The notes: generated by a model not told the origin, from the sequence alone. A DNA stretch of 32,000 nucleotides from Nostoc sp. PCC 7120 = FACHB-418 (GCF_000009705.1 NC_003272.1:1920001-1952000); one strand, 5' to 3'. Counted from the stretch's first letter, positions 2,076 to 19,762 are shown. Translations and numbers: made by a program.

Positions 2076-2107
2076 TTGACACTCCAGTTCACTGGAGGAT
2101 TCAAGAT
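2076..2107 (+). promoter_or_regulatory. MerR-type promoter/operator upstream of the copper ATPase gene
   Basis: TTGACA (2076-2081) is followed immediately by the dyad CTCCAGT-TC-ACTGGAG (2082-2097). A -10 candidate CAAGAT (2102-2107) follows a 20-bp spacer. An over-long spacer with a dyad between -35 and -10 is the classic MerR-family architecture. The same dyad recurs at 5061-5076. Confidence 0.55.
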
Positions 2108-2148
2108 GAAATCAGTCTTGAACATGACTTGATAATTGGAGTCCGCAA

Positions 2149-4410: not shown

Positions 4411-4421
4411 GAGGTTTTTCA

Positions 4422-4985
4422 ATGGTGAACAAAACAGCACTCATCGGTAGTATAGCCAGTTTAGGAATTGTCTTCGGAATTGCATCTGGTCAAGCAGCAG
4501 CACAAACATCACATGAGGCGCACTCAGTCCAAACCAATCAATTTCAACCCATTAACCAGCCATTAGGAAACAAGTTAGCCATTACCCTCGGCGGATTGGG
4601 GCTAATTGGCTTAGAACTCTGGTGGTTCTTGCTGAGTAAACCCAAATCACAAACAGCAGTTGCAACAGTTGAGAATATTCAGGAAGTAACCATCACCGTT
4701 GATGGAGGCTATGATCCAAGTCGGATTGTAGTACAAGTTGGGAAACCAGTACGACTGAAATTTGAACGCAAAGATCCCAGTAGTTGTTTAGAAAAGGTTT
4801 TGATTCCAGACTTTCACATTGCCGCAGATTTACCACTCAATCAAGTAATAACTGTGGAATTTACCCCTAAAGCTATAGGTGAATATGCTTTCACCTGCGG
4901 GATGAATATGTTTCGTGGTGCGATCGCCGTCGAATCAGCAAACGCGAGTGAAGAAATAGCTGCTACTCACATTAGTTTCTCATGA
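4422..4985 (+). CDS. Membrane-anchored cupredoxin-like (plastocyanin-domain) protein, copper-ATPase associated
   Basis: 187-aa ORF starting 12 nt after the copA stop, with AGGAGG 7 nt upstream. Two N-terminal hydrophobic segments. The C-terminal beta-type domain carries candidate Cu ligands (SSCLEKVLIPDFH ... FTCGMNMFRG), as in cupredoxin-like proteins often encoded next to Cu ATPases. Confidence 0.8.
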   Translation: MVNKTALIGSIASLGIVFGIASGQAAAQTSHEAHSVQTNQFQPINQPLGNKLAITLGGLGLIGLELWWFLLSKPKSQTAVATVENIQEVTITVDGGYDPSRIVVQVGKPVRLKFERKDPSSCLEKVLIPDFHIAADLPLNQVITVEFTPKAIGEYAFTCGMNMFRGAIAVESANASEEIAATHISFS

Positions 4986-5054
4986 GATTACACCTTGGAA
5001 TTATCTTACAGTCAGGAGATTGGTCTCACGGTGCATCAGGAGAATCTTTGAAAC

Positions 5055-5086
5055 TTGACTCTCTAGTTAACTGGAGAGTTTAGTAT
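5055..5086 (+). promoter_or_regulatory. MerR-type promoter/operator upstream of the regulator gene (probable autoregulation)
   Basis: TTGACT (5055-5060) is followed immediately by CTCTAGT-TA-ACTGGAG (5061-5076). This lies within a 22-bp palindrome ACTCTCTAGTTAACTGGAGAGT (5058-5079) with one mismatched pair. The -10 candidate TAGTAT (5081-5086) follows a 20-bp spacer. The layout is the same as at 2076-2107. Confidence 0.55.
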
Positions 5087-5124
5087 AAGATTAGTAATCA
5101 TATCTCACTGAAGGTTTGGTAAGT

Positions 5125-5535
5125 ATGTTAGCCCAAACAGAAGCAAAACAAATTGGTGTAGTTGCCAAAGAAAGCGGCGTACCCATTAAAACCATTCGCT
5201 ACTATGAAGAACTTGGTCTACTCACATCATCAGGCAGAACCGAGGGAGGATTTAGATTATTTAATTCTGATGTTTTGGCACGACTGCACTTTATTAAGCG
5301 CGCTCAAAGTTTAGGATTAAGCTTGTCAGAAATCAAGGAATTTTTAAATGTCCACGATGGAGGAGAATTACCTTGTGAACATATCAAAATTAAACTAGAA
5401 GATAAGGTAAAAGCTATTGATGAGCAAATTCAGCAATTACTAATTTTGAGGCAAGAATTATCAGGATTACTTTCTGGGTGGGAAATAAAGCCTGATAATT
5501 CTCATAAAACCATTTGCCCCATTATTGAACATTAA
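5125..5535 (+). CDS. MerR-family heavy-metal-responsive transcriptional regulator (CueR-like)
   Basis: N-terminal winged-HTH IGVVAKESGVPIKTIRYYEELGLL...GGFRLF, a coiled-coil dimerisation helix, and the C-terminal metal-loop remnant TICPIIEH (compare the DCPIIE of CueR, from memory). The track starts the ORF at a TTG (5116); the ATG at 5125 (MLAQTE...) is the more likely start. Confidence 0.9.
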   Translation: MLAQTEAKQIGVVAKESGVPIKTIRYYEELGLLTSSGRTEGGFRLFNSDVLARLHFIKRAQSLGLSLSEIKEFLNVHDGGELPCEHIKIKLEDKVKAIDEQIQQLLILRQELSGLLSGWEIKPDNSHKTICPIIEH

Positions 5536-5547
5536 TTAGATCATGTT

Positions 5548-5615
5548 TGACTGTTCGCAAGCACCAATACTTACCCAAGTGCTAGAACCATCTTGCTAAT
5601 GTTCTTTTTTCCAAA
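5548..5615 (-). pseudogene. Displaced duplicate of the moaE 3-prime end (68 bp)
   Basis: 5548-5615 matches 17549-17616 (the last ~22 codons of moaE) at 66 of 68 positions, in the same orientation. One of the two differences turns the Trp codon of ...KKEHWQDG... into TAG, so this copy is dead. Confidence 0.85.
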
Positions 5616-5874
5616 AAAGTGAGCAATTATGTGCTTAATACCAACGAAATGAGATGTTGAAATTTTTGAATTCTGTTGGTTTAAGACTTTTTTACATGAA
5701 ATTAATCAGAGGATTTGATTTATGAACGGATTTTAAGATAAGAGCCTTGTTAAATATGGATTTAAGTTTCAGTATGTTTTCAAAATCAAAAATTAGTTCC
5801 TGACTTCCGATTTCTGTCACAATCCTTCCTTCTTATTTATTATTTTTGAAAGCATAAAAAGTGGGATGCACTCT

Positions 5875-6261
5875 CTAACTAGTCTCAATTATCAGCCGTT
5901 GGAGTGTAATTTGAATTAATCCAATGGCAATCTGTACAATTAGCCAACCACTTAAACAAATTAAAATCGCCCTAACCAATTTGATATTCAACCAACCTTT
6001 TAAAACTACAATTATTGCTAATAAACTCCAGACTGATAGTCCAATTTCAATCGGTCTTCCCAAAAGCGGAATCACTGTAAAAAAGTTGAAGATTTGGGGA
6101 GTATGAGCAAAGCCAATTGGAATCAGCAGTTTTCTATAGGTAGGAATAGATAATCGCAACTGTTTTCCGGTTTTCCAAATGGTAAATATCCAAAAATAGT
6201 AACCTGCTATTACACTGAAAGCGTTGATTACAAATATAAAAATTAGCAGTGATAATTTCAC
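5875..6261 (-). CDS. Multi-pass membrane protein, YIP1-like, apparently 5-prime truncated
   Basis: 128-aa ORF from a GTG, with four to five hydrophobic helices. The frame stays open without a start codon up to 6390 (RLSAETAILQTLRASSIRSVNVIVILAAIAHASGSVIIPLLAQ...), where it collides with the oppositely oriented ORF at 6368. This suggests a truncated gene. Confidence 0.4.
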   Translation of the reverse strand: MKLSLLIFIFVINAFSVIAGYYFWIFTIWKTGKQLRLSIPTYRKLLIPIGFAHTPQIFNFFTVIPLLGRPIEIGLSVWSLLAIIVVLKGWLNIKLVRAILICLSGWLIVQIAIGLIQITLQRLIIETS

Positions 6262-6367
6262 CTGAGCCAGTAATGGAATAATTACACTGCCTGAAGCATG
6301 GGCGATCGCTGCTAAAATTACAATTACATTAACCGAACGTATACTAGAAGCACGTAATGTCTGGAGA

Positions 6368-6907
6368 ATGGCTGTTTCCGCCGATAATCGCTACGGGCCT
6401 ATCTACAACCAAGCGATCGCTCTAACAATTGTCGAGCAAATGGAGAAACAGCAACCAATTCCCACATCTCCAAAAGAACCAATTCAGCTAATTTTAATGG
6501 GTACAAGTGGCGGCGCTCAGGTGGCTTTAGGTGCTGCTCCCTATTTAGACGAATGGCTTCCCGTGGAAATTACTGTAGTTTCCTTCGGAGGTGTATTTGA
6601 TGGTAATGAAGGCTTTGATGTCGCAAAGCACGTTTACCATTTTCGGGGAGAGCAAGATTGGATTGAAAACATTGGCGGAATAGTTTTTCCGTCCCGATGG
6701 CGATGGACTATAGGTTCTCCTTATAATCGCGCTCGTCGTGAGAATCGCTATACAGTTTACAGTAGCGGCCCCCATCAACATCAGGGAGATGAAAGCTATT
6801 TTAGTCAAGAAGTCGCCCAAAATGATGGTACAACCTACGCAGAATTAACGGTACAACAAGTAAATCGGCTACCCATTTGGTCTTCATCAAAAGTCAGTAG
6901 TCAGTAA
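6368..6907 (+). CDS. Hypothetical protein with alpha/beta-hydrolase-like nucleophile elbow (possibly a truncated gene)
   Basis: 179-aa ORF. LILMGTSGGAQVALGAA resembles a GxSxG elbow following a beta strand. No recognisable N-terminal half. It abuts the truncated membrane-protein gene on the other strand. Confidence 0.4.
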   Translation: MAVSADNRYGPIYNQAIALTIVEQMEKQQPIPTSPKEPIQLILMGTSGGAQVALGAAPYLDEWLPVEITVVSFGGVFDGNEGFDVAKHVYHFRGEQDWIENIGGIVFPSRWRWTIGSPYNRARRENRYTVYSSGPHQHQGDESYFSQEVAQNDGTTYAELTVQQVNRLPIWSSSKVSSQ

Positions 6908-7013
6908 TTGTTCTTCCCTGCTCTTTATCTTTGTATACCCGCATTTTTGCCTCCCCTCATTTTTTCTGCTCCCCTCCTTGCATCTCTTTAATTTCAAACA
7001 AACTAATTAACAC

Positions 7014-7256
7014 TCATGCTAAGGGAATTGATAAGAAAACTCCCACTAATCCTGCAACCTTAGCTCCTACTAGTAAAGCAAAGAACATAAAAACTGGATT
7101 CATGTTAATTGAGCCTTGCATAATGCGCGGCATGAGTAAATTTTCTTCTACTTGCTGGAGAAGGACACAAGCAATTAACGAAACTAGGGTAATGCCAATT
7201 GTCGCTCCAATGCCAGGAGTTAAATCAAAGACACCGGCGATCTCTGCCAAGAGCAA
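7014..7256 (-). pseudogene. Remnant of an AI-2E family (PerM/UPF0118) transporter gene
   Basis: An 80-codon open frame, with a stop three codons upstream of its TTG. It encodes ...IGATIGITLVSLIACVLLQQVEENLLMPRIMQGSINMNPVFMFFALLVGAKVAGLVGVFLSIPLA. This matches the conserved C-terminal block (Q-x-hE-x-N-hh-x-P-x-IM-G ... P) of ~350-aa AI-2E transporters; the rest of the gene is absent. Confidence 0.6.
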
Positions 7257-7861
7257 AGAGTAATATCATAGCGAAGCTGCTTTGCGATTGTAACGACGCT
7301 GTGATATGCTGACGTTACGAAATAAATGTCCTAGTATTGATTCAATATTCAGCAGGTTTAGTTCATGTCGCAGGCAACTATCTCTTCAGTAGCTTTAAAT
7401 AGTTGGTATTGTCCACCTTAAAGGACAAACTGAGCCTTGCAATTATCAAAAGTATTTGTAATTAACTATGCTTGCATAAAAACAGGCTATTTTATCGGTC
7501 TGTAGATTAGTCTGCATATAGTTTATCGTTCACATACTAAGCTTTTTACATACTGTTTGATACCAAAATAAGATTCAAAATCTTGATTCAAGAGATTATT
7601 CCAACAGTTTGAAACAAGACAAATTATCCATATATGATATCACTCTTCAATCAGTCTTCAATCAGTATGAAATAACTACAAGTTAGTAGTTTTTAATTAT
7701 TAAGATATAAAGAAAGTATTGATTGTAATTATGTATATCATGAACAACTTGCAGCAAGGTAATAGGAATTATTAATTACAAAATTTTATTGCCAATCGAT
7801 ATATTTTTAATCTGAATTAAGCACTGGCAATTTTATTTTAATTGAGACGCTAGGAGGAAAC

Positions 7862-9334
7862 TTGAACGGAACAATTTTGAGGCGAGAGTGGTTTTTTAAC
7901 ACTCAGCGAGACATTATGGCAGGTGCGGTTGTGGGACTAGCATTGATTCCAGAGGCGATCGCCTTTTCGATTATTGCTGGGGTTGATCCCAAAGTGGGGC
8001 TATATGCCTCATTTATTATTGCCGTCATGACAGCCTTTTTAGGGGGGAGGCCGGGTTCAATTTCTGCCGCTACAGGGGCGATGGCTCTGTTAATGATTGA
8101 TTTAGTCAAAGATCATGGGTTGCAGTATTTATTCGCAGCCACTTTGTTAACAGGGGTCTTTCAAGTTGTATTTGGATTCCTGCAACTAGGCCGTCAAATG
8201 AGATTTGTACCTAGGGCGGTGATGATTGGTTATATTAATGCCCTAGCGGTGTTAATTTTCCTCGCCCAGTTACCACAACTGACGAATGTACCACCCACCG
8301 TATATATATTGACTCTCCTTTCCTTGGGGATTATTTATATTCTGCCGCGTTTTACTAAAGCCGTCCCCTCTCCCTTGGTGGCGTTGGCGGTGATGACTAT
8401 AGCCGCGATCGCACTCAAACTTAAAGTTCCCAGAGTGGGGGATATGGGAGAGTTACCGACTGCATTACCAAGTTTTGCTTTGCCCCAAGTGCCGTTAACT
8501 CTAGAAACATTCAAGATTATTCTGCCTTATTCTTTAACATTGGCGATCGTGGGTTTGTTGGCTTCATTCTTAACCGCTTCACTAGTAGATGAACTCACAG
8601 ATACCCCCAGCGATAAAAACCAAGAAGCCAAAGGACAAGGGATTGCAAATATAGTTACGGCATTTTTTGGGGGCATGGCCGGATGTGGGATGATTGGGCA
8701 ATCGGTGATTAATGTCCAGTCTGGCGGAAGGGGGAGATTATCAACCCTGGCGGCTGGAGTGTTCCTATTAATTGCCATTTTATTTTTACAGGATTGGGTG
8801 AAACAAATGCCAATGGCGGCACTAGTAGCCGTGATGATTATGGTGTCAATTGGGACATTTCGCTGGACATCCTTTAAAAATATCTCCCGCATTCCCCGCA
8901 CGGAAACGGCTGTGATGTTAACGACGATGTTTGTGACAATCTTCACCCGTAATTTTGCCCTGGGTGTTGTGACAGGTATCGTTATGAGTACAGTATTTTT
9001 CTCTAACAAGATTGCTCAATTGGTATTTGTCGATAAAGTGCTAAGTGAAGATGGTACGCATCGCATCTATAAAGTAGTGGGACAAATTTTCTTTTTATCT
9101 AGAGATGAATTTCTCGGATTTTTTGATTTTACCGAATTGCTGGAGCGTGTCACCATTGATTTAACTCATGCTCACCTGTGGGATCAAGGGGCAGTGGAGG
9201 TACTTGATAGAGCAGTATTGAAATTTCGCCGCAATGGGGCAGAAGTTGAACTAATCGGGCTGAATCAAGCTAGTGCTACGTTGTTGAATAAATTAGCAAC
9301 TCATCAAAAATCCGATGCTGTGAATAAGCAGTAG
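7862..9334 (+). CDS. SulP-family inorganic anion transporter with C-terminal STAS domain
   Basis: 490-aa ORF with AGGAGG 4 nt upstream of a TTG start (alternative ATG at 7916). Polytopic core with [17 protein letters not shown] and [31 protein letters not shown] (SulP signature region). STAS-like tail ([16 protein letters not shown]...). Confidence 0.9.
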
Positions 9335-9375
9335 ATTGCCTTTACACCCTTTGATTAACAAGGGATAAAACTACC

Positions 9376-10239
9376 ATGAAAAATATTTTACTTTGTACCG
9401 ATGGGTCAGCTTATGCTGAAAATGTATATCGATATGGAGCTTGGTTTGCTAGTCAATTTCACGCCAAAATTAATGTTTTGTTTGTCACCGATATTCGCAG
9501 TCAAAAGGTAGTTTCTACGGGTAACTTAAGCGGTAGTATTGGGCTGGGAGCTTCAGAACAATTGCTGAATGAATTAGTTAACTTAGAACATGAAAAAGCC
9601 AAGTTGAATAATCAACGGGCAAAATTGATTTTACAAAATGCTGCTGCAACTCTTAAAGCTGAGGGTATAGAAGATTTTAAGTTAACGAATAAAACAGGAT
9701 TTTTAGTAGATTGTTTCCATGAATTTGCAGAAAATCATGACTTAATTGTTTTAGGTAAACGGGGAGAAGCCGCAGATTTTGCATCGGGACATTTAGGCGC
9801 GAATTTAGATCGGATTATTCGTAGTAGTAGTAAACCATGCTTAGTTACTCCCCGCGAATTTAAAATAATTGATCGCATTTTAGTAACGTATGATGCTAGT
9901 TTAACTGGGAAAAAAATACTAGAATTTTTAGTAGATTATCCTGTATTTCAAAGTTTAGAAGTACATTTACTGACAGTAGCTAAAAGTAACTCAGATCAAA
10001 CAGCATCTACAAGACTGAATGAAGCTAAACAATTGTTGCAAAAAGCTAGATTTGAGCCGATTTGTAGCCTCCTAGAAGGTGAACCAGAAAAAGCGATCGC
10101 TCGATATGTGCAAGAAAACAAGATTAATTTACTGATGATGGGGGCTTACGGACATAGCCGTATTCGTCATCTGATTATTGGTAGCACCACAACTCAAATT
10201 CTTCGCAGCAGCAATATTCCCGTACTGGTCTTTCGTTGA
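9376..10239 (+). CDS. Universal stress protein, tandem USP domains
   Basis: 287-aa ORF with two USP-like halves, each ending in the ATP-binding-type motif (DLIVLGKRGEA... and NLLMMGAYGHSRIRHLIIGSTTTQILRSSNIPVLVFR). Confidence 0.85.
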   Translation: MKNILLCTDGSAYAENVYRYGAWFASQFHAKINVLFVTDIRSQKVVSTGNLSGSIGLGASEQLLNELVNLEHEKAKLNNQRAKLILQNAAATLKAEGIEDFKLTNKTGFLVDCFHEFAENHDLIVLGKRGEAADFASGHLGANLDRIIRSSSKPCLVTPREFKIIDRILVTYDASLTGKKILEFLVDYPVFQSLEVHLLTVAKSNSDQTASTRLNEAKQLLQKARFEPICSLLEGEPEKAIARYVQENKINLLMMGAYGHSRIRHLIIGSTTTQILRSSNIPVLVFR

Positions 10240-10269
10240 TCAAGTCTTCTAATTGAGAGTAATAATACG

Positions 10270-11973
10270 GTGTCCATTAATCCTATCAACAAAATTCACT
10301 TTCGCAATTGGCGAGGCGACCTATTTGGGGGCTTAACTGCGGCGATTGTCGCTTTACCCTTAGCCCTAGCCTTTGGTGTCGCTTCCCGTGCAGGTGCGAT
10401 CGCAGGACTTTATGGTGCGATCATCGTCGGCTTTTTTGCGGCTTTGTTTGGGGGAACACCAGCCCAAGTTTCTGGCCCTACAGGGCCGATGACTGTGGTA
10501 GTGACAACCGTGATTACTACCTTGATGGCGCGTTATCCCGATACGGGGTTAGAAATTGCATTTACCGTTGTCATGTTGGGCGGACTAATGCAAATCCTGT
10601 TTGGGGTGATGCGTCTGGGACAATATATCACCCTCCTGCCCTACACCGTCATCTCTGGCTTTATGTCAGGGATTGGCGTAATTATCATTTTGCTGCAATT
10701 ACCCCCCTTATTGGGTCATGCCGGCACGGGTGGCGTAGTCACAACTCTACAAAAACTGCCCGCCTATCTAAGTAATCCTAACTGGGTGGCTGTCGGGCTG
10801 GGGTTACTGACGTTGATTATTGTCTTTGCTGCTCCACCCAAACTAAATCGGGTTATACCTTCCCCTCTATTAGCTTTGGTGGCGGTAACAATTATTTCAG
10901 TGGTGGTATTCAAAGATGCCGATATAGCGCGCATTGGTAAGATTCCTAGCGGATTCCCCACTTTCCACAAGCCCACCTTTAATCTCCGCGAGTTAGCAGA
11001 TATGCTCAGGTATGGGCTGATGTTAGGGGTGTTGGGATCGATAGATTCGCTGTTAACTTCCTTGGTGGCTGATAATATTTCCCGTACTCAGCATGATTCT
11101 GACAAGGAATTAATAGGGCAAGGAATTGGCAATATGTTGGCGGGGTTATTTGGCGGATTACCCGGTGCAGGCGCAACCATGCGGACAGTTGTAAATGTCC
11201 AAGCTGGGGGGAAAACGCCCTTATCTGGGATGATTCATGCTTTGGTACTGCTGTTAGTTGTGTTTTGGGCAAGTCCATTAACAGCGCAGATTCCTAATGC
11301 AGTGCTGGCGGGACTTTTATTCAAGGTAGGTATTGATATTCTCGATTGGGGATTTATCAAACGTGCGCCCCGTCTTTCTTTGAAGGGTACGGGATTAATG
11401 TATTTGGTGTTGTTTCTCACCGTATTTGTAGATTTAATTACGGCGGTACTAGTAGGAGCGTTTATTGCCAATGTCCTGACAATTAAACGGTTAAGCGATG
11501 TCCAAAGTGATAATATTCAAGTCATTACTGACCCCACAGGAAATCAAAATCTTACTCCCACCGAGCAAGAAATTCTCACCCAAGCCGGAGGGGATATTTT
11601 ACTGCTGAAATTAGGGGGGCCAATGAGCTTTGGTGCAGCTAAAAGCATCTCTCGCCGGATGTCATTCGTGCAGAACTATCAAGCAATAGTATTAGATTTT
11701 AGTGAAGTCCCTAGTATTGGGATAACAGCTGCCCTCGCCATTGAATCTATAGTAGAAGATGCGATCGCACATCATCGCCACGTTTGGATAGTTGTTACCC
11801 GTGGACAAGTACAGCGACGCATTACCCACCTTGACTTGCAGCGATTCTGTCAGCCTCAGAAAACACAGGATGCGTCTTCTGGCAAGTTGTCAGCCCAAAT
11901 TAATCAGGTAGAAAGCCGCATACAGGCGTTAGAATCAGCGTTTGCGGTGATTCAGTTAGAAAGTCTTGCTTGA
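10270..11973 (+). CDS. bicA: SulP-family transporter, BicA-like (candidate Na+-dependent bicarbonate transporter) with STAS domain
   Basis: 567-aa ORF with a GTG start. The N-terminal block INKIHFRNWRGDLFGGLTAAIVALPLALAFGVASRAGAIAGLYGAIIVGFFAALFGGTP, and DKELIGQGIGNMLAGLFGGLPGAGATMRTVVNVQAGG, closely resemble the cyanobacterial BicA sequence as I remember it. Size and STAS tail also fit. The substrate assignment is by similarity only. Confidence 0.85.
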   Translation: MSINPINKIHFRNWRGDLFGGLTAAIVALPLALAFGVASRAGAIAGLYGAIIVGFFAALFGGTPAQVSGPTGPMTVVVTTVITTLMARYPDTGLEIAFTVVMLGGLMQILFGVMRLGQYITLLPYTVISGFMSGIGVIIILLQLPPLLGHAGTGGVVTTLQKLPAYLSNPNWVAVGLGLLTLIIVFAAPPKLNRVIPSPLLALVAVTIISVVVFKDADIARIGKIPSGFPTFHKPTFNLRELADMLRYGLMLGVLGSIDSLLTSLVADNISRTQHDSDKELIGQGIGNMLAGLFGGLPGAGATMRTVVNVQAGGKTPLSGMIHALVLLLVVFWASPLTAQIPNAVLAGLLFKVGIDILDWGFIKRAPRLSLKGTGLMYLVLFLTVFVDLITAVLVGAFIANVLTIKRLSDVQSDNIQVITDPTGNQNLTPTEQEILTQAGGDILLLKLGGPMSFGAAKSISRRMSFVQNYQAIVLDFSEVPSIGITAALAIESIVEDAIAHHRHVWIVVTRGQVQRRITHLDLQRFCQPQKTQDASSGKLSAQINQVESRIQALESAFAVIQLESLA

Positions 11974-12187
11974 AAAGTTTAATGGGTGGCAATTGGTGTG
12001 GATCATTAGCTTTATCAGACGCGATAAATCGCGCCTCTAAATGAGGATTTTGGGTTTATTTGAAGCATATTAAGTAACTGCCCAGGTAGGAAAGTCAGGG
12101 ATATTCCGGTGAGGGAAGAAAGATGGTAATGTTCAAGGATAAGTCCAGAAGAAAAAGATCAAAAAATAGAAAGGCTAGAGCAAGAGG

Positions 12188-12328
12188 TTAAAGCTCTGCT
12201 ATCCTTTCCAGCAGTGCTTTAACCTCATCTGCTTGTTTCTGAGCGATTGCGTGAACTATTTCTTTTTGACAACCCATTGCATCAATCGTAACAATACAAC
12301 CCGCGATGTCCAAGACTTTTATCAATCG
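12188..12328 (-). mobile_element. ISAs1-family (H-repeat) transposase remnant
   Basis: A minus-strand 46-codon frame bounded by stops reads RLIKVLDIAGCIVTIDAMGCQKEIVHAIAQKQADEVKALLERIAEL. The block GCIVTIDAMGCQK-x-I is the conserved core of ISAs1-type transposases. No full gene or IS ends are visible. Confidence 0.55.
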
Positions 12329-12369
12329 TTATATTTACGTATGTTGACTCAAAGAGCGATTTTTAAATT

Positions 12370-15300
12370 TTATTGCCACCACCGTGAAACATCTTGGATA
12401 GCAGAAGCTGTATCTCTCAATGCTTGTTCGCCACCTAAAGTATCTATAATTGGAGTTAGTATATTTATATCACTAAGTAAGCCTGGGCGAGTGTAAACAG
12501 ATAAGATGTGAAGAGTTTTTCCCCAGAGACAAAAAAGTTGAGTTTTTTGTATTTGTAAAAGTTTATCCACCAAACTACTCAGGACTTGGGCGCGATGCTT
12601 CTCATCCTGAATCCCCCTGGCAGCAGCCACAGCCTCTGGTAACAATTCTGGCAATTTATCAGCCAAATTACTTAGAACATCAGCACGATACTCTTCATCC
12701 TGAATCTTCCTAGCAGCAGCCACAGCCTCTGGTAACAATTCTGGCAATTTATCAGCCAAATTACTTAGAACATCAGCACGATACTCTTCATCCTGAATCT
12801 TCCTAGCAGCAGCCACAGCCTCTGGTAACAATTCTGGCAATTTATCAGCCAAATTACTTAGAACATCAGCACGATACTCTTCATCCTGAATCTCCCTAGC
12901 AGCAGCCAGAGCCTCTGGTAACAATTCTGGTGGCAATTTATCAGCCAAACTACTTAAGGCATTGGCGCGATAGTACTCATCCTGAATTTCCCTGGCTGCT
13001 GCCAGAGCCTTTGGTAACAATTCTGGTGGCAATTTATCAGCCAAATCACTTAGATTATAGGCGCGATTATGCCCGTCATCCTGAATCTCCCTGGTAGCAG
13101 CGAGAGCCTCTGGTAATAATTCTGGCAATTTATCAGCCAAACTTCTTAGGGCTAAGGAACGAGGATACTCATCCTGAATCCCCCTGGCAGCAGCTACCGC
13201 CTCTGGTAATAATTCTGGGAATTTATCAGCTAGACTTATTAGAACATAGGCGCGATAGTACTCATCCTCAGTCTCCCTGGCAGCAGCCACAGCCTCTGGT
13301 AATAATTCAGGTGGCAATTTATCAGCCAAACTACTTAAGCTATCGGCGCGACAATGCTCACTCAGAATCTCCCTGGCAGCAGCCAGAGCCTCTGGTAGCA
13401 CTTCTGGGAATTTATTAGCCAAATTACTTAGAGCATCGGAATGAAACGCATCATACTCGATCTCCCTAGCAGCAGCTACAGCCTCTGGTAACAATTCTGG
13501 CAACTGAACAGCCAAACTACCCAGAATAGAGGCGCGAAACTCTCCATATTCAATCTCCCTAGTAGCAGCCACAACTTCTGGTAGCAATTCTGGTGGCAAT
13601 TTATCAGCCAAACTTCTTAAGGCTTGGGCGCGATACTCCTCATCCTGAATCTCTATGGCAGCAGCTAGAGCCTCTGGTAACAATTCTGGAAATTTATCAG
13701 CCAAACTTCTTAAGGCTTGGGCGCGACTTGACTCAAACTGAATCTCCCTGGCAGCAGCTAGAGCCTCTGGTAACAATTCCGGCAATTTCGCAGCCAAACT
13801 ACTGAGAATATAGGCGCGATACTTCTCATCCTTAATCTCTCTGACAGCCACAGCCTCTGATAACAATTCTGGTGGTAATTTATTTGCTAAACTACTTAGA
13901 GCATCGTTGCGATACTTTTCATCCTCAATCTCCCTGGCAGCAGCGAGAGCCTCTGGTAATAATTCTGGTAATTTATCAGCCAAACTACTTAAGGCTTCGG
14001 CGCGATACTTTTCATCCTCAATTTCCCTGGCAACAGCGAGAGCCTCTGATAACAATTCTGGTGGCAATTTATCAGCCAAACTACTTAGAATATCAGCGCG
14101 ATTATAACCATTCTGAATCTCCCTGGTAGCAGCGAGAGCCTCTGGTAATAATTCTGGCAATTTATCAGCCAAACTACTTAGAATATAGGCGCGACTTGAT
14201 TCAAACTCAATCTCCCTGGCAGCAGCCAACGCCTCTGGTAACAGTTCTGGCAATTTATCACTCAAACTTCCCAGTACTTCGGCGCGATTCGCCTCATCCT
14301 GAATTTCCCTGGCAGCAGCCACAGCCTCTGGTAACAATTCTGGTGGTAATTTATTAGCCAAACTAATTAGAGCATCGCGGCGATTGTAGCTATTCTCAAT
14401 CTCCCTGGCAGCAGCCAACGCCTCTGGTAATAATTCTGGCAATTTATCAACCAAAATACTTAGAACAAAGACACGAGAATCCTCATCCTGAATCTCCCTG
14501 GCAGCAGCCACAGCCTCTGGTAACAATTCTGGTGGCAATTTAACAGCCAAACTACTTAGAATTCGAGCACGCCTAGACTCATCCTCAGTCTTTCTGGCAG
14601 TAGCTAGAGCCTCTGGTAACAATTCTGGCAATTTATCAGCCAAACTACCTAGTACCTGGGCGCGAAACTCCTCATCCTGAATCTCCCTGGCAGCAACCAG
14701 AGCCTCTGGTAACAATTCTGGCGGTAATTTGTCAGCCAAACTACCTAGTACCTGGGCGCGATAGCTCTCATACTCAATCTGCCTGGCAACAGCCAGAGCC
14801 TCTGGTAATAATTCTGGTGGCAGTTTAACAGCCAAACTACTTAGTACCTGGACGCGAAACTTTTCATCCTCAGCCTCCCTGGTATCAATCTTCCTAGTAG
14901 CAGCCAGAGCTTTCGACAGTGCTAATTCTTTTAACTTTGATGGCAAATGATTGGCTAGCTGTGTAAGCAAGTTTGCTTTCTGTGATGGATTCGAGCTTTG
15001 TATTGCGTAACTGAGTCCTTGCTCAGGAGTCCACATATTTTTTTCAACTAACGCAACCAACAGCCCTACTGGTAAATCCACTGTTAAACTATTAAGGGAT
15101 GCAATAATTAAAGCATAGCGACACTGCAACCCAATAACTTGAGCCAAGGTTGTTTCAGTCCAGGAGTTTTCTGCCAATTCCCAAGCACGAAAAACATCAG
15201 TTACAAAATTGGCAGTTTGTGATAGGCGCGCGCAAGCTTCGTACCAACCATTACCTCCTGTTTCTGAATCTTCTCGTAATAATTCGTGAATTTCTTCTAC

Positions 15301-16515
15301 CTTTTGAGCCTTGGACAAATGCCAAACTAAATGCTGATGGATATACCCGTCATTGGGTAAGGTATGCCAAAGATTTTCAGAGGTTTTATTTCGGTATGTC
15401 TCCAAAAAAGTAGCGTGAGCAGAGGCTAAAGTTATACCCAACCCCGATAGATTATCTTCATCCTCTGGGTTTGGTGGAGCAGTCAACAAATTACGTGCTA
15501 AGTCATGAAATAAGTCATGTAAACGGTACGTTGGTGTCCCATCTTTTAAAGGAACTCCAGGCGATAAAACTGCTTTATTTTCTAAGTATTCCAATGTCTT
15601 AGCAGCATCATATATATCCATTTTCCATAGAGTCGCTGCCATCATCTTAGTGATGGTAACATTTTTCGGTAATACCCCCAACCAAGAAAAATGCTCCTGC
15701 TTTTCTTTAGGCATTCGCTTGAGACTCAAATTTAATGATGCTGTTAAGCGCAAGCGTTTTAAAATGGTTTCATCAGTAATTTCTTCTGCTTTTGGTCGAG
15801 TAAGATTTTTTAATCGCGCTACCTCTTGCTGAAAATCCTCTAATAATTGAGTCCAAGTTGTACAACTGGCGATTTCAGCAGCTACCAATGACAACGCCAG
15901 AGGGAAATAACCAACGGATGAAGCTAAATCTTGCGCTGGCTGATATTCTATAGCAGTAATCGAGCGTCCTAATTTTTTAGTCAGCAGTTCCATTGCTTGG
16001 GATGGTTCCATCACATCCAAACAACATGGGGGGTTAGCTCCGAGAGCTTCGGCGATTTCTGCATCGCGGGTTGTTACCAAAACTTGACAGCTAGCTCCAC
16101 CAACATTAAATGCTTGTGCATCCTCTATATTCCAAACGTCGTCTATTATTAGCAGCACAGCTTTTTCATACAACAATGTACGCAGTTGATTGGAAGTTGC
16201 TTCCACACTGATGGGTTTAAAGTTGTAGTCCCCCAATGCTTGTACCCAAGCACTAAGCAGCGATAAAAGATTAGGCTGTTGACCTAAAGTTACCCAGAGA
16301 ATCCCGTCACAAAAATGAGCTTGCACCTCTTGGTCATATGCCAAAGCCATTGCCAGGGTAGATTTACCAACCGAAGCCAAGCCATCAATAGCTGTCACGA
16401 CCAAAGCACCTACATCTGATGAATTTTTCAGCAGACGAGTTTTTAACTCTCGGCTGTATTCGAGACGTTCTACATAATAATTTGGTAGAGATGGTGCGAG
16501 TAAGGTATCAATCAT
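12370..16515 (-). CDS. STAND NTPase of the APAF-1/NB-ARC type with a C-terminal array of ~24 HEAT/TPR-like 31-32-aa helical repeats (bacterial NLR-like protein)
   Basis: 1381-aa ORF. The NB-ARC motifs appear in order: Walker A GLASVGKST, Walker B LLIIDDVW, VLVTTR, GLPL-like GYFPLAL, MHD-like RLHDLFHDLA, then an APAF-1-like helical domain (YIHQHLVWHLSKA...). From about aa 564 to 1317 come repeats of consensus KLP(P)ELLPEALAAAREIQDEEYRAxVLSSLAD, then a 64-aa non-repeat cap ending QDVSRWWQ. Only ~25 aa precede the NTPase, so there is no effector domain. Confidence 0.9.
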   Translation of the reverse strand: MIDTLLAPSLPNYYVERLEYSRELKTRLLKNSSDVGALVVTAIDGLASVGKSTLAMALAYDQEVQAHFCDGILWVTLGQQPNLLSLLSAWVQALGDYNFKPISVEATSNQLRTLLYEKAVLLIIDDVWNIEDAQAFNVGGASCQVLVTTRDAEIAEALGANPPCCLDVMEPSQAMELLTKKLGRSITAIEYQPAQDLASSVGYFPLALSLVAAEIASCTTWTQLLEDFQQEVARLKNLTRPKAEEITDETILKRLRLTASLNLSLKRMPKEKQEHFSWLGVLPKNVTITKMMAATLWKMDIYDAAKTLEYLENKAVLSPGVPLKDGTPTYRLHDLFHDLARNLLTAPPNPEDEDNLSGLGITLASAHATFLETYRNKTSENLWHTLPNDGYIHQHLVWHLSKAQKVEEIHELLREDSETGGNGWYEACARLSQTANFVTDVFRAWELAENSWTETTLAQVIGLQCRYALIIASLNSLTVDLPVGLLVALVEKNMWTPEQGLSYAIQSSNPSQKANLLTQLANHLPSKLKELALSKALAATRKIDTREAEDEKFRVQVLSSLAVKLPPELLPEALAVARQIEYESYRAQVLGSLADKLPPELLPEALVAAREIQDEEFRAQVLGSLADKLPELLPEALATARKTEDESRRARILSSLAVKLPPELLPEAVAAAREIQDEDSRVFVLSILVDKLPELLPEALAAAREIENSYNRRDALISLANKLPPELLPEAVAAAREIQDEANRAEVLGSLSDKLPELLPEALAAAREIEFESSRAYILSSLADKLPELLPEALAATREIQNGYNRADILSSLADKLPPELLSEALAVAREIEDEKYRAEALSSLADKLPELLPEALAAAREIEDEKYRNDALSSLANKLPPELLSEAVAVREIKDEKYRAYILSSLAAKLPELLPEALAAAREIQFESSRAQALRSLADKFPELLPEALAAAIEIQDEEYRAQALRSLADKLPPELLPEVVAATREIEYGEFRASILGSLAVQLPELLPEAVAAAREIEYDAFHSDALSNLANKFPEVLPEALAAAREILSEHCRADSLSSLADKLPPELLPEAVAAARETEDEYYRAYVLISLADKFPELLPEAVAAARGIQDEYPRSLALRSLADKLPELLPEALAATREIQDDGHNRAYNLSDLADKLPPELLPKALAAAREIQDEYYRANALSSLADKLPPELLPEALAAAREIQDEEYRADVLSNLADKLPELLPEAVAAARKIQDEEYRADVLSNLADKLPELLPEAVAAARKIQDEEYRADVLSNLADKLPELLPEAVAAARGIQDEKHRAQVLSSLVDKLLQIQKTQLFCLWGKTLHILSVYTRPGLLSDINILTPIIDTLGGEQALRDTASAIQDVSRWWQ
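12566..14827 (-). repeat. Intragenic tandem repeat array, period 93/96 nt, ~24 units
   Basis: The motif ctctggtaacaattctgg(tgg)caatttatcagccaaa... recurs throughout. Units 12638-12730 and 12731-12823 are identical. Unit 12824-12916 differs from them at 2 positions. More 5-prime units (higher coordinates) are progressively more diverged. Confidence 0.9.
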
Positions 16516-16533
16516 CTTGTATATTACTGGCTT

Positions 16534-17097
16534 TTACAGCTTTTGATTGACTAGATATCTCCGAAAACGCTCAAAGCCTTTATGTTCTTCTAAAACTAAT
16601 TTTACTTTAAGCAGATCATAAGTTATGCTCTCATCATCTTCTATACCATCATCGCTTGGAGCATCTATGTATTCCCCGTCCCAGCGACGCTTAAAAGCGC
16701 TGTCTAAATAATAAATAGATTCATCTGATGTATTAATAGTGGCAATTATAAATAAGTTAGGGGGATTGTTAATTTTGCGATTTTCTAAATTTTTAAGTAG
16801 TCTCAATCAATTACTGTTTGAATCTCTTTCCAATTGAGATTTTAAGTTGCCAGTAAAAATACCAAAATTACTGCCGTTAATTTTTATTAAACCCTCAAGG
16901 TAAATATTAGCTTTATGTCCCATTACATTAAATAAACCAACCAATTACATTTCCGAGACATCAACCTCATAACTCGACCAATCGTCTTCTTACCTGTCCA
17001 GCAATTGAAAAACTGAACCAAATATAGCAGCAGCATTTCCTCGGTTTAATTCATCAATAACCAGGAGACAATTATCACTTAGAAGTAGTAGCCATAG
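16534..17097 (-). pseudogene. Decayed McrB-like AAA+ (AAA_5 / restriction GTPase subunit) gene lacking its Walker A half
   Basis: A single minus-strand frame reads ...CLLVIDELNRGNAAAIFGSVFQLLDR*EDDWSSYEVDVSEM*LVGLFNVMGHKANIYLEGLIKINGSNFGIFTGNLKSQLERDSNSN*LRLLKNLENRKINNPPNLFIIATINTSDESIYYLDSAFKRRWDGEYI.... That gives a McrB-type Walker B (IDE-x-NR), an NhhIIaTxNtxDxS block and an arginine-finger block (AFKRRW). The frame has three in-frame stops (16990-16992, 16945-16947, 16807-16809). The N-terminal P-loop region is missing and is replaced by the opposite-strand ORF at 17098. Track ORF 16534..16806 is the last open piece and ends 18 nt before the NB-ARC start. Confidence 0.7.
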
Positions 17098-17418
17098 ATG
17101 GCAAAACTCACTACAATTGAGTCATTAATTGGAGCAGTTGTTATTGAAGAATTTGGTGCTTTTACTTGGATTGGAAGACAATGGTACTTCACAAACTTCA
17201 CGGGTAAACCTTTTACTCGTAATGATTTTATTGAATGGTATTCCTGCCCAAGAGGAATGATATTACCTAATTGTCAGTACACTGATTTTCAAAATTGGGG
17301 TGGTAGTGCTGAATTAATTAACAAGAAAATCAAGTGGTATTTTATTGGACGAGATGAAAGTGGTAGACGTGTTAAGGGTGAAGCTGAAATTGAAGAATTT
17401 GGTGAGCTTATTGAGTAA
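17098..17418 (+). CDS. Hypothetical protein (orphan, 106 aa)
   Basis: The ORF has a protein-like composition (MAKLTTIESLIGAVVIEEFGAFTWIGRQWYF...). I recognise no family motif, and its reverse complement shows no McrB-like sequence. It sits at the breakpoint of the McrB-like remnant. Confidence 0.4.
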   Translation: MAKLTTIESLIGAVVIEEFGAFTWIGRQWYFTNFTGKPFTRNDFIEWYSCPRGMILPNCQYTDFQNWGGSAELINKKIKWYFIGRDESGRRVKGEAEIEEFGELIE

Positions 17419-17533
17419 ATTCTGAGGTGCGCTCACTCTCCTCAACTCCTGCTCTTATTACTTTACTTGGACTTGTGTGTACACCGTAGGTTCTCTAGAC
17501 GAAACACGGGCATAGGCAACTAATTCGGGAATT

Positions 17534-18031
17534 TTAGCAATTTTGTCCTGACTGTTCACAAGCACCAATACTTACCCAAGTGCTAGAACCATCTTGCCAA
17601 TGTTCTTTTTTCCAAATGGGGGCGTTATGTTTCAGGGTATCAATTGCATAGCGACAGGCTGCAAATGCCTCACTACGATGGGGACAACCTATGGCTACTA
17701 AAACGCTGATTTGTCCTACCTGCAAACGCCCAATACGATGATGAATCACTACCCGATTGACAGCAGGCCAAGCCGAGCGAATGTCTGCCGCTATTTGATA
17801 AAATACACGCAATGCCATTGGTTCATAAGCTTGATATTCTAAGGAAACTACAGGTTTTCCATCGGTTTGATTGCGAACCATCCCACTCATTACTACCACC
17901 GCACCATTAGCCGAGTCATCGGCTAGAGCATGAATTTCTTCTAGAGATAAAGGTGCGAAAGTGATAGCAAAACTATCTTCAATTTTGGGTTTGAGCGTAA
18001 CAATGGGTGTAGATGGCAGCACTGATTTCAT
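17534..18031 (-). CDS. moaE: Molybdopterin synthase catalytic subunit MoaE
   Basis: MoaE hallmarks are present: GAVVVMSGMVRN..., LEYQAYEPMA, HHRIGRLQVGQISVLVAIGCPHRSEAFAACRYAIDTLKHNAPIWKKEHW. The track starts at a TTG (18046); the ATG at 18031 (MKSVLPST...) is the more likely start. Confidence 0.92.
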   Translation of the reverse strand: MKSVLPSTPIVTLKPKIEDSFAITFAPLSLEEIHALADDSANGAVVVMSGMVRNQTDGKPVVSLEYQAYEPMALRVFYQIAADIRSAWPAVNRVVIHHRIGRLQVGQISVLVAIGCPHRSEAFAACRYAIDTLKHNAPIWKKEHWQDGSSTWVSIGACEQSGQNC

Positions 18032-18086
18032 AGTCCTAGATATCAACTGAATATATAATTATTTATTACTATTATTAATTAACATA

Positions 18087-18204
18087 GGACTTACGCACTG
18101 AGGTTGTCTGTTGAGACTGGGTGTAAGGGTGTAAGGGTTTTAAACATTTATACCCCTATACCCTTGTCCAAACCCTTAATTTTTCGTTTTCATGCGTCAA
18201 GTCC
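18087..18204. repeat. MITE-like palindromic dispersed element, copy A
   Basis: Terminal inverted repeats GGACTTACGCA ... TGCGTCAAGTCC. The left arm has the 8-mer GTAAGGGT x2 and the right arm has complementary ATACCCCT/ATACCCTT units. Collinear with 23929-24060 (shared core AGGTTGTCTGTTGAGACTGGGTGTA... and ...TTCGTTTTCATGCGT). Confidence 0.7.
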
Positions 18205-18253
18205 AATTAGCAATTACCCAACTCTACAAATAATATAAGCCTAGCAACAAGAA

Positions 18254-19762
18254 TTAATTCTTATGCTGGACTGCATTAATTGTTTGTAATAATTGGTAAG
18301 CGGTGTATGGCTTCGATAAAAATGCTTGGATACCCATATTATAAGCTGTGTTGACTTTATCATGAGCCGCCAAGCCACTGACAGCAATGATTTTTACATG
18401 AGGATTAATTTTTTGCAATGTCCGAATAGTTGTTAAGCCATCCATAGAGGGCATTACCATATCTGTCAACACCAAAGATATTTCGTCTCGGTGTTCTGCA
18501 TATAAGGCGATCGCTTCAATTCCATCACTAGCTGTAATTGCTTTATAATTATGAGACTCTAGAGATGTTTTCGTAATATCTCTAATAGCAGCTTCATCAT
18601 CGACAACTAAGATTAACTCTCCATTTCCTGGAGGTAATTCCAACTCTGCTTCTTCTAAAAGCTCTTTGGTATCCTGAGCAGGTAAATACACTTTAAACTG
18701 GCTGCCTTCGCCCTCTTCCGTATATACATTAATAAAACCCCCGTGACTTTTAATAATGCCGAGTACGGTTGAAAGTCCTAATCCCGTGCCTTTACCCAAT
18801 TCTTTCGTGGTAAAGAATGGCTCAAATATCCGATCTAATATGTCTGAAGGAATACCAATTCCCGTATCAGTAACTGTAACTACTACATAGGGGCCGACTT
18901 TGGCATCTATATTCATTTTGGCATAATTTTCATCTATCGAGAAGTTTTCCGCCGTGATTTTCAACGTACCGCCCTTGGGCATCGCATCACGGGCATTAAC
19001 ACACAAATTCATCAGTACTTGATGTAACTGGGTAGCATCACCAGAAACAGTCCAAAGATTCTGAGAAATGTGCGCCACCAAATCAATTGATTTGGGAAAT
19101 GTTTCTTTAATAATTTGCTGAATTTCTCCCACTAGGTGCTTCAATTGCAATAAGGTGCGTTCACCTTCAAGACCGCGAGTAAATGATAATACTTGTTTAA
19201 CTAAGTTAGCCCCGCGTTTAGCGTTAGTAATCAATATTGGCAATAGTCGCCGAGAACGTTCATCTTTGATTTGTGATTCTAAAAGTTGTGCTGTCATCAA
19301 AATAGGAGCCAGAACATTATTGAGATCATGGGCAATACCACTTGCAAGAGTGCCAATACTCTCTAATCGTTGAGCGCGAAGAAATTGAGCTTCTAATTGC
19401 TTTTTTTGGGTGATTTCTGTGTTGACGATGAGTATACATTGGGATTTATTCCCAAACTCATGTACTAATGTCCAACGGCTTTCAACAATAATTTCTTTAC
19501 CAGATTTTGTGGTTTGATGTAATTCTCCCTTCCATGAACCTTTTTGCTGTAGAGTCTCCAGTGCTTTTTGCAATAAGGCTAAGTTTTTGTCTTGCCAGAG
19601 ATTTTGAGTTTTGTTGTCAATTGCTTCTGCTTTTTGCCAACCGTAAAGCCTTGCTGCTGCTTCGTTCCAAAATAAAACTTGCCCATCTAAATCTTGTACA
19701 AAAATGGCATCATTGGCAATATCCAGCAGCGCTGCTTGTTCACGGATTTTTTTTCTGTTTGT
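18254..19762 (-). CDS. Hybrid sensor histidine kinase, PAS-HisKA-HATPase_c-REC portion (downstream part of a frameshifted REC-PAS-HK-REC gene)
   Basis: H-box SGIAHDLNNVLAPI, N-box LMNLCVNARDAMP, G-boxes DTGIGIP and GKGTGLGLS, C-terminal receiver LILVVDDEAAIRD...VLTDMVMPSMDG. The frame is open upstream of the track start (TTG 19573) up to 19762. That extension encodes a PAS N-terminus: IREQAALLDIANDAIFVQDLDGQVLFWNEAAARLYGW. Confidence 0.85.
   Translation of the reverse strand, partial: TNRKKIREQAALLDIANDAIFVQDLDGQVLFWNEAAARLYGWQKAEAIDNKTQNLWQDKNLALLQKALETLQQKGSWKGELHQTTKSGKEIIVESRWTLVHEFGNKSQCILIVNTEITQKKQLEAQFLRAQRLESIGTLASGIAHDLNNVLAPILMTAQLLESQIKDERSRRLLPILITNAKRGANLVKQVLSFTRGLEGERTLLQLKHLVGEIQQIIKETFPKSIDLVAHISQNLWTVSGDATQLHQVLMNLCVNARDAMPKGGTLKITAENFSIDENYAKMNIDAKVGPYVVVTVTDTGIGIPSDILDRIFEPFFTTKELGKGTGLGLSTVLGIIKSHGGFINVYTEEGEGSQFKVYLPAQDTKELLEEAELELPPGNGELILVVDDEAAIRDITKTSLESHNYKAITASDGIEAIALYAEHRDEISLVLTDMVMPSMDGLTTIRTLQKINPHVKIIAVSGLAAHDKVNTAYNMGIQAFLSKPYTAYQLLQTINAVQHKN

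Follow-up and report, generated by a model that had tools for sequence, protein, structure and literature searches.

A relic of the moaE 3′ end in Nostoc sp. PCC 7120 as a probable substrate for precise 12-kb deletion rather than the border of a genomic island

We analysed a 32,000-nt stretch of the chromosome of Nostoc sp. PCC 7120 = FACHB-418 (GCF_000009705.1, NC_003272.1:1920001-1952000; hereafter the window), in which 68-bp direct repeats of the 3′ end of moaE, the gene for the large subunit of molybdopterin synthase, bracket about 12 kb of mosaic sequence. An earlier note on this DNA had likened the arrangement to the footprint of a site-specifically integrated genomic island. We favour instead, with moderate confidence, a reading in which the left copy is a dead moaE 3′ relic, located at the seam between a copper-resistance cassette and decayed chromosomal DNA and now acting as a deletion substrate, while the segment is resident, partly decayed DNA and not an island integrated into moaE. 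Because relic and gene form direct repeats with a 39-bp identical core, they would be open to recombination with each other, and a crossover falling between the two mismatches that bound this core would remove exactly 12,001 bp, and with it two SulP permeases, a Usp protein, an NLR-like gene and several pseudogenes. It would also fuse moaE to the short spacer beyond the relic, yielding a MoaE that ends in ...EQSNMI, a product matching that of contigs on which merR adjoins moaE. The direction would thus be from the filled to the empty form, presumably by replication slippage or by homologous recombination of the RecA type, for which a perfect stretch of 39 bp suffices, and with no part played by a site-specific enzyme. 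The MoaE ending in NMI is presumably still functional. The relic itself likely derives from an older recombination event at the moaE 3′ end, a recurrent breakpoint in Nostocales.

A repeat search recovered the two copies at 5548-5615 and 17549-17616 (66 of 68 positions identical, 97%; 12,001 bp from start to start), as the earlier note had described them, and found no further copy of the 68-nt repeat in the window. Such a match is impossible by chance, and in-register alignment of the two copies shows an abrupt loss of identity at either edge. The right copy encodes MoaE W140-S161 (WKKEHWQDGSSTWVSIGACEQS), and the left copy, read in the moaE frame, gives FWKKEH*QDGSSTWVSIGACEQSNMI*. The first mismatch (5557 G versus 17558 A) is a synonymous Cys change, TGC versus TGT on the coding strand. 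The second (5597 T versus 17598 C) is a TAG in place of TGG, the stop-generating change already reported for the left copy, and the sequence between the two mismatches is identical over 39 bp. In Trichormus variabilis and Anabaena sp. CCY 9910 the core has exactly the sequence of the right copy, so the left copy carries the derived state at both positions.

Two details of the original description needed adjustment. The right copy had been called the functional end of moaE. It does lie within the functional gene, whose 165-aa (amino acid) product has an exact match on 23 contigs, but it lacks the terminal GQNC codons and the stop (17534-17548). The left copy does adjoin merR, but 12 nt rather than the claimed 13 separate it from the merR stop (5533-5535). 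Read on the minus strand, this spacer (5536-5547) keeps the MoaE frame open for three codons and then provides a stop, supplying the substitute MoaE tail NMI* in the deletion form. Among 123 fetched loci the 68-mer occurs solely as moaE itself or as moaE-derived relics, and hence is not the multi-copy dispersed repeat that would have been an alternative to an att-like structure. Its core was not found in PLSDB plasmids, GenBank phages or IMG/VR, the phage search returning one chance 35-nt match only, to a Staphylococcus phage. We also considered DNA-level constraint on the core and rejected it: synonymous-site identity is 0.73 in the core versus 0.67 in the rest of moaE (p = 0.17), and with no excess of synonymous conservation there is no sign of DNA-level selection across Nostocales.

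The product expected from a deletion between the repeats is represented in public assemblies. A 164-aa MoaE variant (P0032), ending in EQSNMI instead of EQSGQNC, is encoded on contigs where moaE is followed directly by convergent merR, cupredoxin and copA genes. These comprise L102 (ENA ERZ926327, 2589 nt), L103 (Logan SRR32280519 and four other runs), L101/L114 (SRR32280515, 4317 nt) and L116 (SRR32280521). All of them carry a single hybrid core, with the left-type G at the first mismatch and the right-type C at the second, and an exact loss of 12,001 bp. The flanks of L102 are 100% identical to window 4357-5615 and 17549-18946, and those of L103 likewise. L101/L114 and L116 are identical to the window from 5194 through the core into moaE, and to the left of 5193 L101/L114 carries a diverged copper cassette (303-aa cupredoxin, copA at 77%). 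A contig from a further project, L115, has the variant cassette and ends inside the core. The merR-moaE junction was recovered by two assemblers and in at least eight runs from different projects (five for L103, one each for L101, L116 and L102). A candidate for the empty site in which the merR-side flank abuts moaE, as the earlier note had suggested looking for, thus appears on strain-level contigs, although their near-identical flanks and non-canonical MoaE tail suit a secondary deletion better than an ancestral attB. None appears at the species level: when MoaE was searched against 185,579 species genomes and the 80 best loci were compared, merR, copA or any segment gene lay downstream of moaE in 0 of 80. 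Exact-pattern scans for the hybrid, circular and plain core gave no match in Joint Genome Institute (JGI) metagenome contigs or in IMG/VR, the JGI set evidently lacking the junction contigs, and a literature search returned nothing relevant on a moaE-linked element or deletion in PCC 7120.

One could suppose that the merR-moaE contigs are assembly chimeras, de Bruijn graph paths running across the 39-bp identical stretch, and that the left copy is an inert scar. The junction contigs are all short (935-4317 nt), the mock-community DNA behind L102 gives 64-kb filled contigs elsewhere, and a hybrid core of left type and then right type is the pattern that a graph mis-join leaves. We nevertheless give this explanation little credence. 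Artefacts of this kind would have to recur in two assemblers and in all the runs listed above for the junction. Moreover, Logan contigs, built at k = 31, stop at branches, so that their passage through the core would imply that segment-side branches are absent in those samples; the final k of 127 used by MEGAHIT exceeds the repeat length; and several junction contigs carry a diverged cassette that is absent from filled genomes.

Comparison of the two forms bears on the direction of change. Apart from the number of repeats in the NLR-like gene, the 18 filled contigs are clonal, and both mismatches are present in every one of them. Across 2.6 kb of flank, not one difference separates the filled from the empty form, whereas 2 of 68 positions distinguish the two repeat copies. 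The repeat, at 3% divergence, therefore predates the separation of the two forms, and a recent deletion from the filled form fits better than a recent insertion. The latter is hard to reconcile with a stop change in 68 nt and none in 2.6 kb (about 1 in 40 if mutations are even), and its donor would have to supply a moaE tail and downstream trailer colinear with T. variabilis. These difficulties apply to a scenario with the empty form first, in which a genome whose moaE tail had already been replaced by the copper cassette (moaE...EQSNMI*-merR) took up moaE-tail-trailer-segment DNA from a relative, by a homologous joint in moaE and an illegitimate joint at the A-run of the WKKE codons, leaving an old moaE 3′ piece behind as the left copy. 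Such a history would account for a moaE fragment against merR without extra events, and the junction at 5615/5616 does lie within the A-run. Furthermore, the downstream side of moaE differs in nearly every relative and the upstream side is syntenic, as expected for a homology anchor; an empty-form lineage with a diverged cassette exists; and the structure in Cyanobacteria bacterium FACHB-471 (described below) fits the same scheme. We still hold it to be decidedly unlikely, as the donor would have to be identical over at least 1.39 kb of moaE and upstream sequence yet different inside the 68 bp, and as the breakpoints described next, reciprocal to within 2 nt in one genome, tie the right end of the segment to the native trailer by a single event.

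The position of the native moaE end argues against an island. A G-x-N-C-like tail terminates MoaE in 79 of 80 Nostocales, the exception (L081) being cut by the contig end, and the NMI ending occurs in none. In a classical attL/attR structure, the gene's own 3′ end comes to lie at the far repeat. The moaE tail has not been moved in this way: the distal left copy is the one without GQNC* and trailer. About 45 nt past the moaE stop (17490-17533, minus strand; AATTCCCGAA..TTGCCTATGCCCGTGTTTCGTCTAGAG) are kept in scattered Nostocales, with this trailer recurring in T. variabilis and in L014, L015, L016, L042, L061, L071, L074 and L087, the following genes being different in each. The trailer was also considered as a known or structured RNA and rejected, with no Rfam match anywhere in the window and a fold z-score of +1.0. 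From 28365 down to 17495 the window is colinear, at 91-94% identity, with its closest complete relative, T. variabilis ATCC 29413, and this colinearity takes in the moaE tail and trailer at about 93%, so that native sequence extends 54 nt into the "island". The GQNC* tail and about 40 nt of trailer thus lie inside the supposed element, because they are contiguous with the right copy and colinear with T. variabilis.

Beyond this point, synteny with T. variabilis breaks in a manner that would be explained by an inversion. The next gene in T. variabilis is a convergent peptidoglycan-binding gene, whose PCC 7120 orthologue is at ~2.222 Mb in CP183817.1 (a window-identical chromosome used for far coordinates), 286 kb from moaE (~1.936 Mb), on the strand of moaE and on its upstream side. 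Position 10543 of the T. variabilis locus (L106) corresponds to window 17495, and position 10546 to ~2,221,978 in CP183817.1 on the opposite relative strand, making the breakpoints reciprocal to within 2 nt. Judging from these alignments, a single inversion of ~286 kb relative to T. variabilis, spanning ~1,936,142-2,221,977 in CP183817.1, would explain both junctions. As the T. variabilis continuation lies ~286 kb away and inverted, 17494/17495 is an inversion breakpoint and not an island end, and the DNA to the left of the native trailer is whatever the inversion placed across that breakpoint. We also observed IS630-type transposase genes ~1 kb from the far inversion junction (L119 11775-12720).

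The contents of the segment were confirmed as a mosaic of gene remnants and accessory genes by Pfam, PADLOC and a comparison with Nostoc sp. UHCC 0252 (Table 1). Window 5865-10240 is syntenic with a chromosomal block of UHCC 0252 at 81-95% identity, where the order is 189-aa membrane protein, 339-aa hydrolase, AI-2E transporter, SulP and Usp, and is a decayed copy of an ordinary chromosomal block. For the sulP and usp genes the identity to the UHCC 0252 locus L113 is 81-94%; since this locus ends past usp, the comparison covers the first SulP gene and the Usp gene, not the second permease. Relative to UHCC 0252, a deletion of 644 nt at 6327/6328 took away the beginnings of two divergent genes along with the promoter region that they share, and another at ~7178-7287 took ~3 kb, including most of the AI-2E transporter gene and a VanA_C-type gene. 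Because of these two internal deletions, the annotated 128-aa and 179-aa open reading frames (ORFs) are gene remnants. The NB-ARC (STAND/NLR-like) gene holds ~24 tandem 93/96-nt units (repeat families D1-D4), and its product measures 1318, 1319, 1350 or 1381 aa among otherwise identical PCC 7120-type assemblies, indicating that the array expands and contracts on a strain time-scale. PADLOC identified no defence system for the NLR-like gene or for a Roco gene of FACHB-471.

Mobility functions and foreign composition were both looked for in the segment. As had been noted from the sequence, no integrase or recombinase is visible: none, and no transposase domain either, was found in called ORFs (Pfam, NCBIfam) or in six-frame Pfam scans of 5536-7861 and other non-genic stretches, and the window contains no tRNA. 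There is no step in guanine-plus-cytosine content, HIP1 or tetranucleotide composition at the repeats. The normal HIP1 density claimed for the left half of the segment was upheld (1.04 per kb, versus 1.08 per kb in the left flank), and the sole compositional outlier is the repeat array inside the NLR-like gene.

Relics of the moaE 3′ end are also present in other cyanobacteria. In Anabaena sp. CCY 9910, core, tail and trailer of a relic (L122), which adjoins WP_414753170, are still joined to the native downstream gene, and the functional MoaE, WP_414753197, ~27 genes away, has a foreign 3′ end past WKKE (WKKE-WYSELDGKL...). In FACHB-471 (L084 10499-17613), the terminal 80 nt of a canonical moaE lie 7 kb downstream of the strain's own moaE, whose unusual tail (…LPQGC) looks like a contribution of the inserted block. 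This 7-kb block encodes a UPF0175/DUF3368 toxin-antitoxin pair (PADLOC candidate PDC-S70), a 1166-aa LRR-Roc-COR protein, an unknown 325-aa protein, a SnoaL-like protein and a DUF1838 protein, and no recombinase was found in it. Anabaena azotica FACHB-119 (L012 10399-10630) has a tandem ~118-nt duplication comprising the last 33 moaE codons, the stop and a HIP1 site, ~20 nt past the gene, its second copy being degenerate at 84% identity. Because of these similar relics, the moaE 3′ end may be a recurrent recombination hotspot. Beside moaE, relatives with the trailer or the WYSELDGKL variant carry no integrase, only unrelated housekeeping-type genes.

Part of this comparative evidence could be enlisted for the classical island, that is, for a degraded element that entered the moaE 3′ end, left its copies as attL and attR, lost its integrase or used one in trans, and had the merR-moaE arrangement as its attB. 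Direct repeats of the 3′ part of a gene together with an exact empty form are what such an element would leave. Its cargo would be apt, with an NLR-like gene, a restriction remnant and an insertion-sequence scrap. The FACHB-471 insertion resembles it in combining a Roco-type NTPase, a toxin-antitoxin pair and a relic with the canonical tail, and in CCY 9910 the native 3′ end is displaced beside the native downstream gene and the functional MoaE has a foreign end. This interpretation is, however, quite unlikely. An integrase is absent in and near the segment and from the complete FACHB-471 insertion as well, the native tail and trailer are found on the side opposite to that expected, running on from moaE to the inversion breakpoint, and the NMI tail of the presumed attB occurs in 0 of 80 relatives. 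In addition, the segment's left half is chromosomal by synteny and resembles the host in HIP1 density, and an attP-like copy was not found on plasmids, phages or IMG/VR contigs. The suggestion of site-specific integration made for this segment is accordingly not sustained.

The copper cassette beside the left copy has a different affiliation. Window 2033-5536 is 84-87% identical to conjugative Nostocales plasmids, on which merR is one codon longer (merR ends: plasmid GAACATGAATAA versus window GAACATTAATTAG) and precedes a methyltransferase and an HMA gene. Two JGI contigs (L096/L097) carry a 99.5% identical cassette with another merR 3′ end, adjoining HMA, NikA-like and relaxase genes. Among the cassette loci, including L096, L097, L117 and L118, merR is a mosaic with recombination breakpoints near 5194 and near 5470. 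The core was not found beside merR on any PLSDB plasmid, where homology stops at 5536. A second copy of the cassette on a PCC 7120 plasmid was looked for and not found.

On its other side, the left copy is followed by a ~25-nt arm unlike native moaE, which has a counterpart in CCY 9910. The arm matches the flank of the CCY 9910 relic at 19 of 24 positions (P ~0.0025 in an anchored alignment), blastn aligns window 5548-5640 to the same locus over 93 nt at 92.5%, and among the fetched loci the arm pattern TAATTGCTNNCTNTTTTGGAAAAAAGAA is confined to PCC 7120-type loci and L122. The divergence of the arm is about that of neutral intergenic DNA between PCC 7120-type strains and CCY 9910. To judge from this similarity, the arm-core junction would either have been inherited from a common ancestor or have been carried on one piece of DNA. 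The left relic was also tried as a longer, decayed moaE pseudogene and rejected, as its upstream scores equal those of shuffled controls, and the CCY 9910 relic is likewise not longer. The flank of the FACHB-471 relic, considered as kin to the arm of PCC 7120 and CCY 9910, bears no resemblance to it and was rejected too.

The shared arm raises the alternative of an intact attP-like site in the left copy (arm, core, spacer, merR), one that travels with the copper cassette and has stayed unrecombined with the attB of moaE. Recombination in cis would then produce merR-moaE as the attL-type junction, and the CCY 9910 relic would be the matching attR-type junction. Each expected combination can be pointed to: moaE 5′ part-core-tail in the window and T. 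variabilis, arm-core-spacer-merR in the left copy, moaE 5′ part-core-spacer-merR in L101-L103, and arm-core-tail-native downstream gene in L122. The core is far better kept than the common arm, the spacer leaves the MoaE frame open for three codons before its stop, and the cassette is typical of conjugative plasmids, with the L096/L097 copy adjoining NikA and relaxase genes. We regard this possibility as unlikely all the same. Neither the 11 kb on the cassette side nor the 12 kb on the other yielded a recombinase, no PLSDB plasmid has the core beside merR, and a stop codon in the left copy is pointless unless crossover always occurs 3′ of the stop. Likewise, the arm is ~25 nt long and restricted to two closely related strains, so that common descent explains it equally well, and the functional MoaE of CCY 9910 lacks the NMI ending.

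Rather unlikely, too, is that the invariant coding stretch at the moaE 3′ end (WKKEHW...WVSIGACE) is a recurrent docking site, with no linked integrase, for accessory DNA in heterocystous cyanobacteria, of which the left copy would be a functional and portable version, preserved nearly unchanged relative to moaE as its flank decays. If this were so, STAND/NLR or Roco NTPases, toxin-antitoxin pairs, restriction remnants and plasmid-type metal-resistance cassettes would come, go and replace one another at this site, recombination with moaE would capture or release the 12-kb block or the copper cassette, and a ready-made replacement C-terminus would keep MoaE intact.

Several observations weigh against the account that we favour, in which the left copy is a dead relic and the empty form its deletion product. 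The left copy has changed at 2 of 68 positions versus ~5 of 24 in the shared arm (relative to CCY 9910). As the core is better kept than the arm, gene conversion against moaE or functional constraint is suggested, and the left copy has either been held similar to moaE, by gene conversion or through a function as recombination site, or is young. Among relatives, each of the four att-type junctions is found. A site-specific system would predict this, and simple homologous exchange of the gene with a dispersed copy fits as well. As assemblies, the deletion contigs are short. L102 derives from a mock community of 59 genomes (PMC4787001); its DNA stock yields the filled form in other libraries, and the contig may be a low-coverage chimera formed via the 39-bp stretch. 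Because the L101/L114 cassette is diverged to the left of 5193, not every empty-form lineage can be a mere PCC 7120 substrain, and this cassette leaves room for an empty arrangement that may be independent and older. Finally, the 286-kb inversion is defined relative to T. variabilis and may have arisen in either lineage.

Comparison with known systems places the structure closest to ordinary direct-repeat deletion by homologous recombination or slippage. It is like these in its 39-bp perfect stretch, the single hybrid copy kept and the exact loss of one period, and we know of no difference; what is unusual here is that one repeat is an orphan piece of a gene, with a flank found again in a second strain. 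Islands and prophages integrated at gene 3′ ends share with it direct repeats derived from the gene 3′ end around ~12 kb of accessory and decayed genes, and an exact empty form. Unlike them, this segment has no integrase or mobility genes, a host-like composition, a native gene end that adjoins the gene, a vertically syntenic block and an inversion breakpoint at its end. PCC 7120 itself carries elements excised in heterocysts from nifD (XisA), fdxN (XisF) and hupL (XisC), which measure 10-55 kb and have 5-16-bp repeats. The resemblance lies in the type of organism, the direct repeats inside a gene and the precise removal. Those elements, however, interrupt their gene and carry a recombinase at the border, whereas moaE is an intact 165-aa ORF before excision and the repeat is 68 bp long; the 68-bp repeat contains none of the nifD, fdxN or hupL target sequences, and no Xis-type recombinase was found at the border. 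In homology-facilitated illegitimate recombination, known from transformable bacteria, a one-sided homologous anchor is combined with an illegitimate joint. A conserved gene, lineage-specific DNA and leftover 3′ fragments (here and in FACHB-471, CCY 9910 and A. azotica) are in keeping with it, but for this window it would seem to need several coincidences.

The structure is thus a further case of a familiar type, and its practical interest lies in the strain concerned, since laboratory work on heterocyst-forming cyanobacteria relies mainly on PCC 7120 as its model. Were the deletion real, certain stocks or subpopulations would be without the 12 kb (two SulP-type permeases, Usp and the NLR-like gene) and would have an altered MoaE C-terminus, and unnoticed differences among "wild-type" strains could follow. 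More generally, a repeat of a gene 3′ end together with an "empty site" is insufficient to call an island, as synteny in relatives here puts the real gene end inside the bracket. The recurrence of moaE 3′ relics in four cyanobacterial lineages indicates a rearrangement hotspot.

Table 1 Features of the copper cassette, the bracketed segment and moaE, in window coordinates
Feature	Position	Strand	Remarks
Plasmid-type copper-resistance cassette	2033-5536	plus	right edge 12 nt from left repeat
Copper P-type ATPase	2149-4410	plus	Pfam
Cupredoxin	4422-4985	plus	Pfam
MerR/CueR-like regulator	5125-5535	plus	Pfam
Spacer, merR stop to left repeat	5536-5547		12 nt
Left copy, orphan moaE 3′ fragment	5548-5615	minus	equivalent to W140-S161; two derived changes, including TGG to TAG
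Arm beside left copy	5616-5640	minus	~25 nt, unlike native moaE
Stretch of unknown origin	5641-5864		no ORF, Pfam match or homologue in any fetched locus
Three gene remnants	5865-7262		tblastn/blastn against UHCC 0252 L113, L111/L112
189-aa membrane-protein gene, 3′ part	5878-6348	minus	
339-aa alpha/beta-hydrolase gene, C-terminal 194 codons	6323-6904	plus	
AI-2E transporter gene, C-terminal 115 codons	6960-7262	minus	Pfam AI-2E_transport
SulP permease	7862-9334	plus	Pfam
Tandem-Usp protein	9376-10239	plus	Pfam
Second SulP/STAS permease	10270-11973	plus	Pfam
ISAs1-like transposase scrap, 41 codons (…TIDAMGCQKEI…)	12194-12316	minus	below Pfam significance; presumably ISAs1 family, from its motif
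NB-ARC (STAND/NLR-like) gene	12370-16515	minus	Pfam NB-ARC 5.6e-23
McrB/restriction-type AAA remnant	16534-16806	minus	PADLOC REase_II fragments; weak AAA_5
Orphan 106-aa ORF	17098-17418	plus	no match found
Synteny breakpoint against T. variabilis	17494/17495		
Native moaE tail GQNC, stop (17534-17536) and ~40-nt trailer	17495-17548	minus	inside bracketed segment
moaE, molybdopterin synthase large subunit	17534-18031	minus	165 aa; Pfam MoaE 2.5e-39
Right copy, W140-S161 part of functional moaE	17549-17616	minus	ancestral state at both mismatches

Beyond moaE, the window contains a hybrid histidine kinase, an MFS transporter and PfaD/PKS genes. At ~19755, one A is missing in the window relative to L001, L002 and L004, and this indel splits the 630-aa hybrid histidine kinase (receiver-PAS-HisKA-HATPase-receiver) into ORFs of 152 and 439 aa, reflecting either a substrain-specific frameshift or a sequencing error. 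Two intergenic blocks ~5.85 kb apart, at 18087-18243 and 23929-24058, have stretches of 52, 29 and 27 nt in common (81-93% identity) and are made of tandem 8-nt units (GGGTGTAA), a short dispersed repeat type common in Nostoc. Lastly, 67-nt inverted copies at 1682-1748 and 20888-20954 are 79% complementary; the arm at 20.9 kb has short matches in the unrelated loci L017, L025, L045 and L122 and is probably a small dispersed repeat element.

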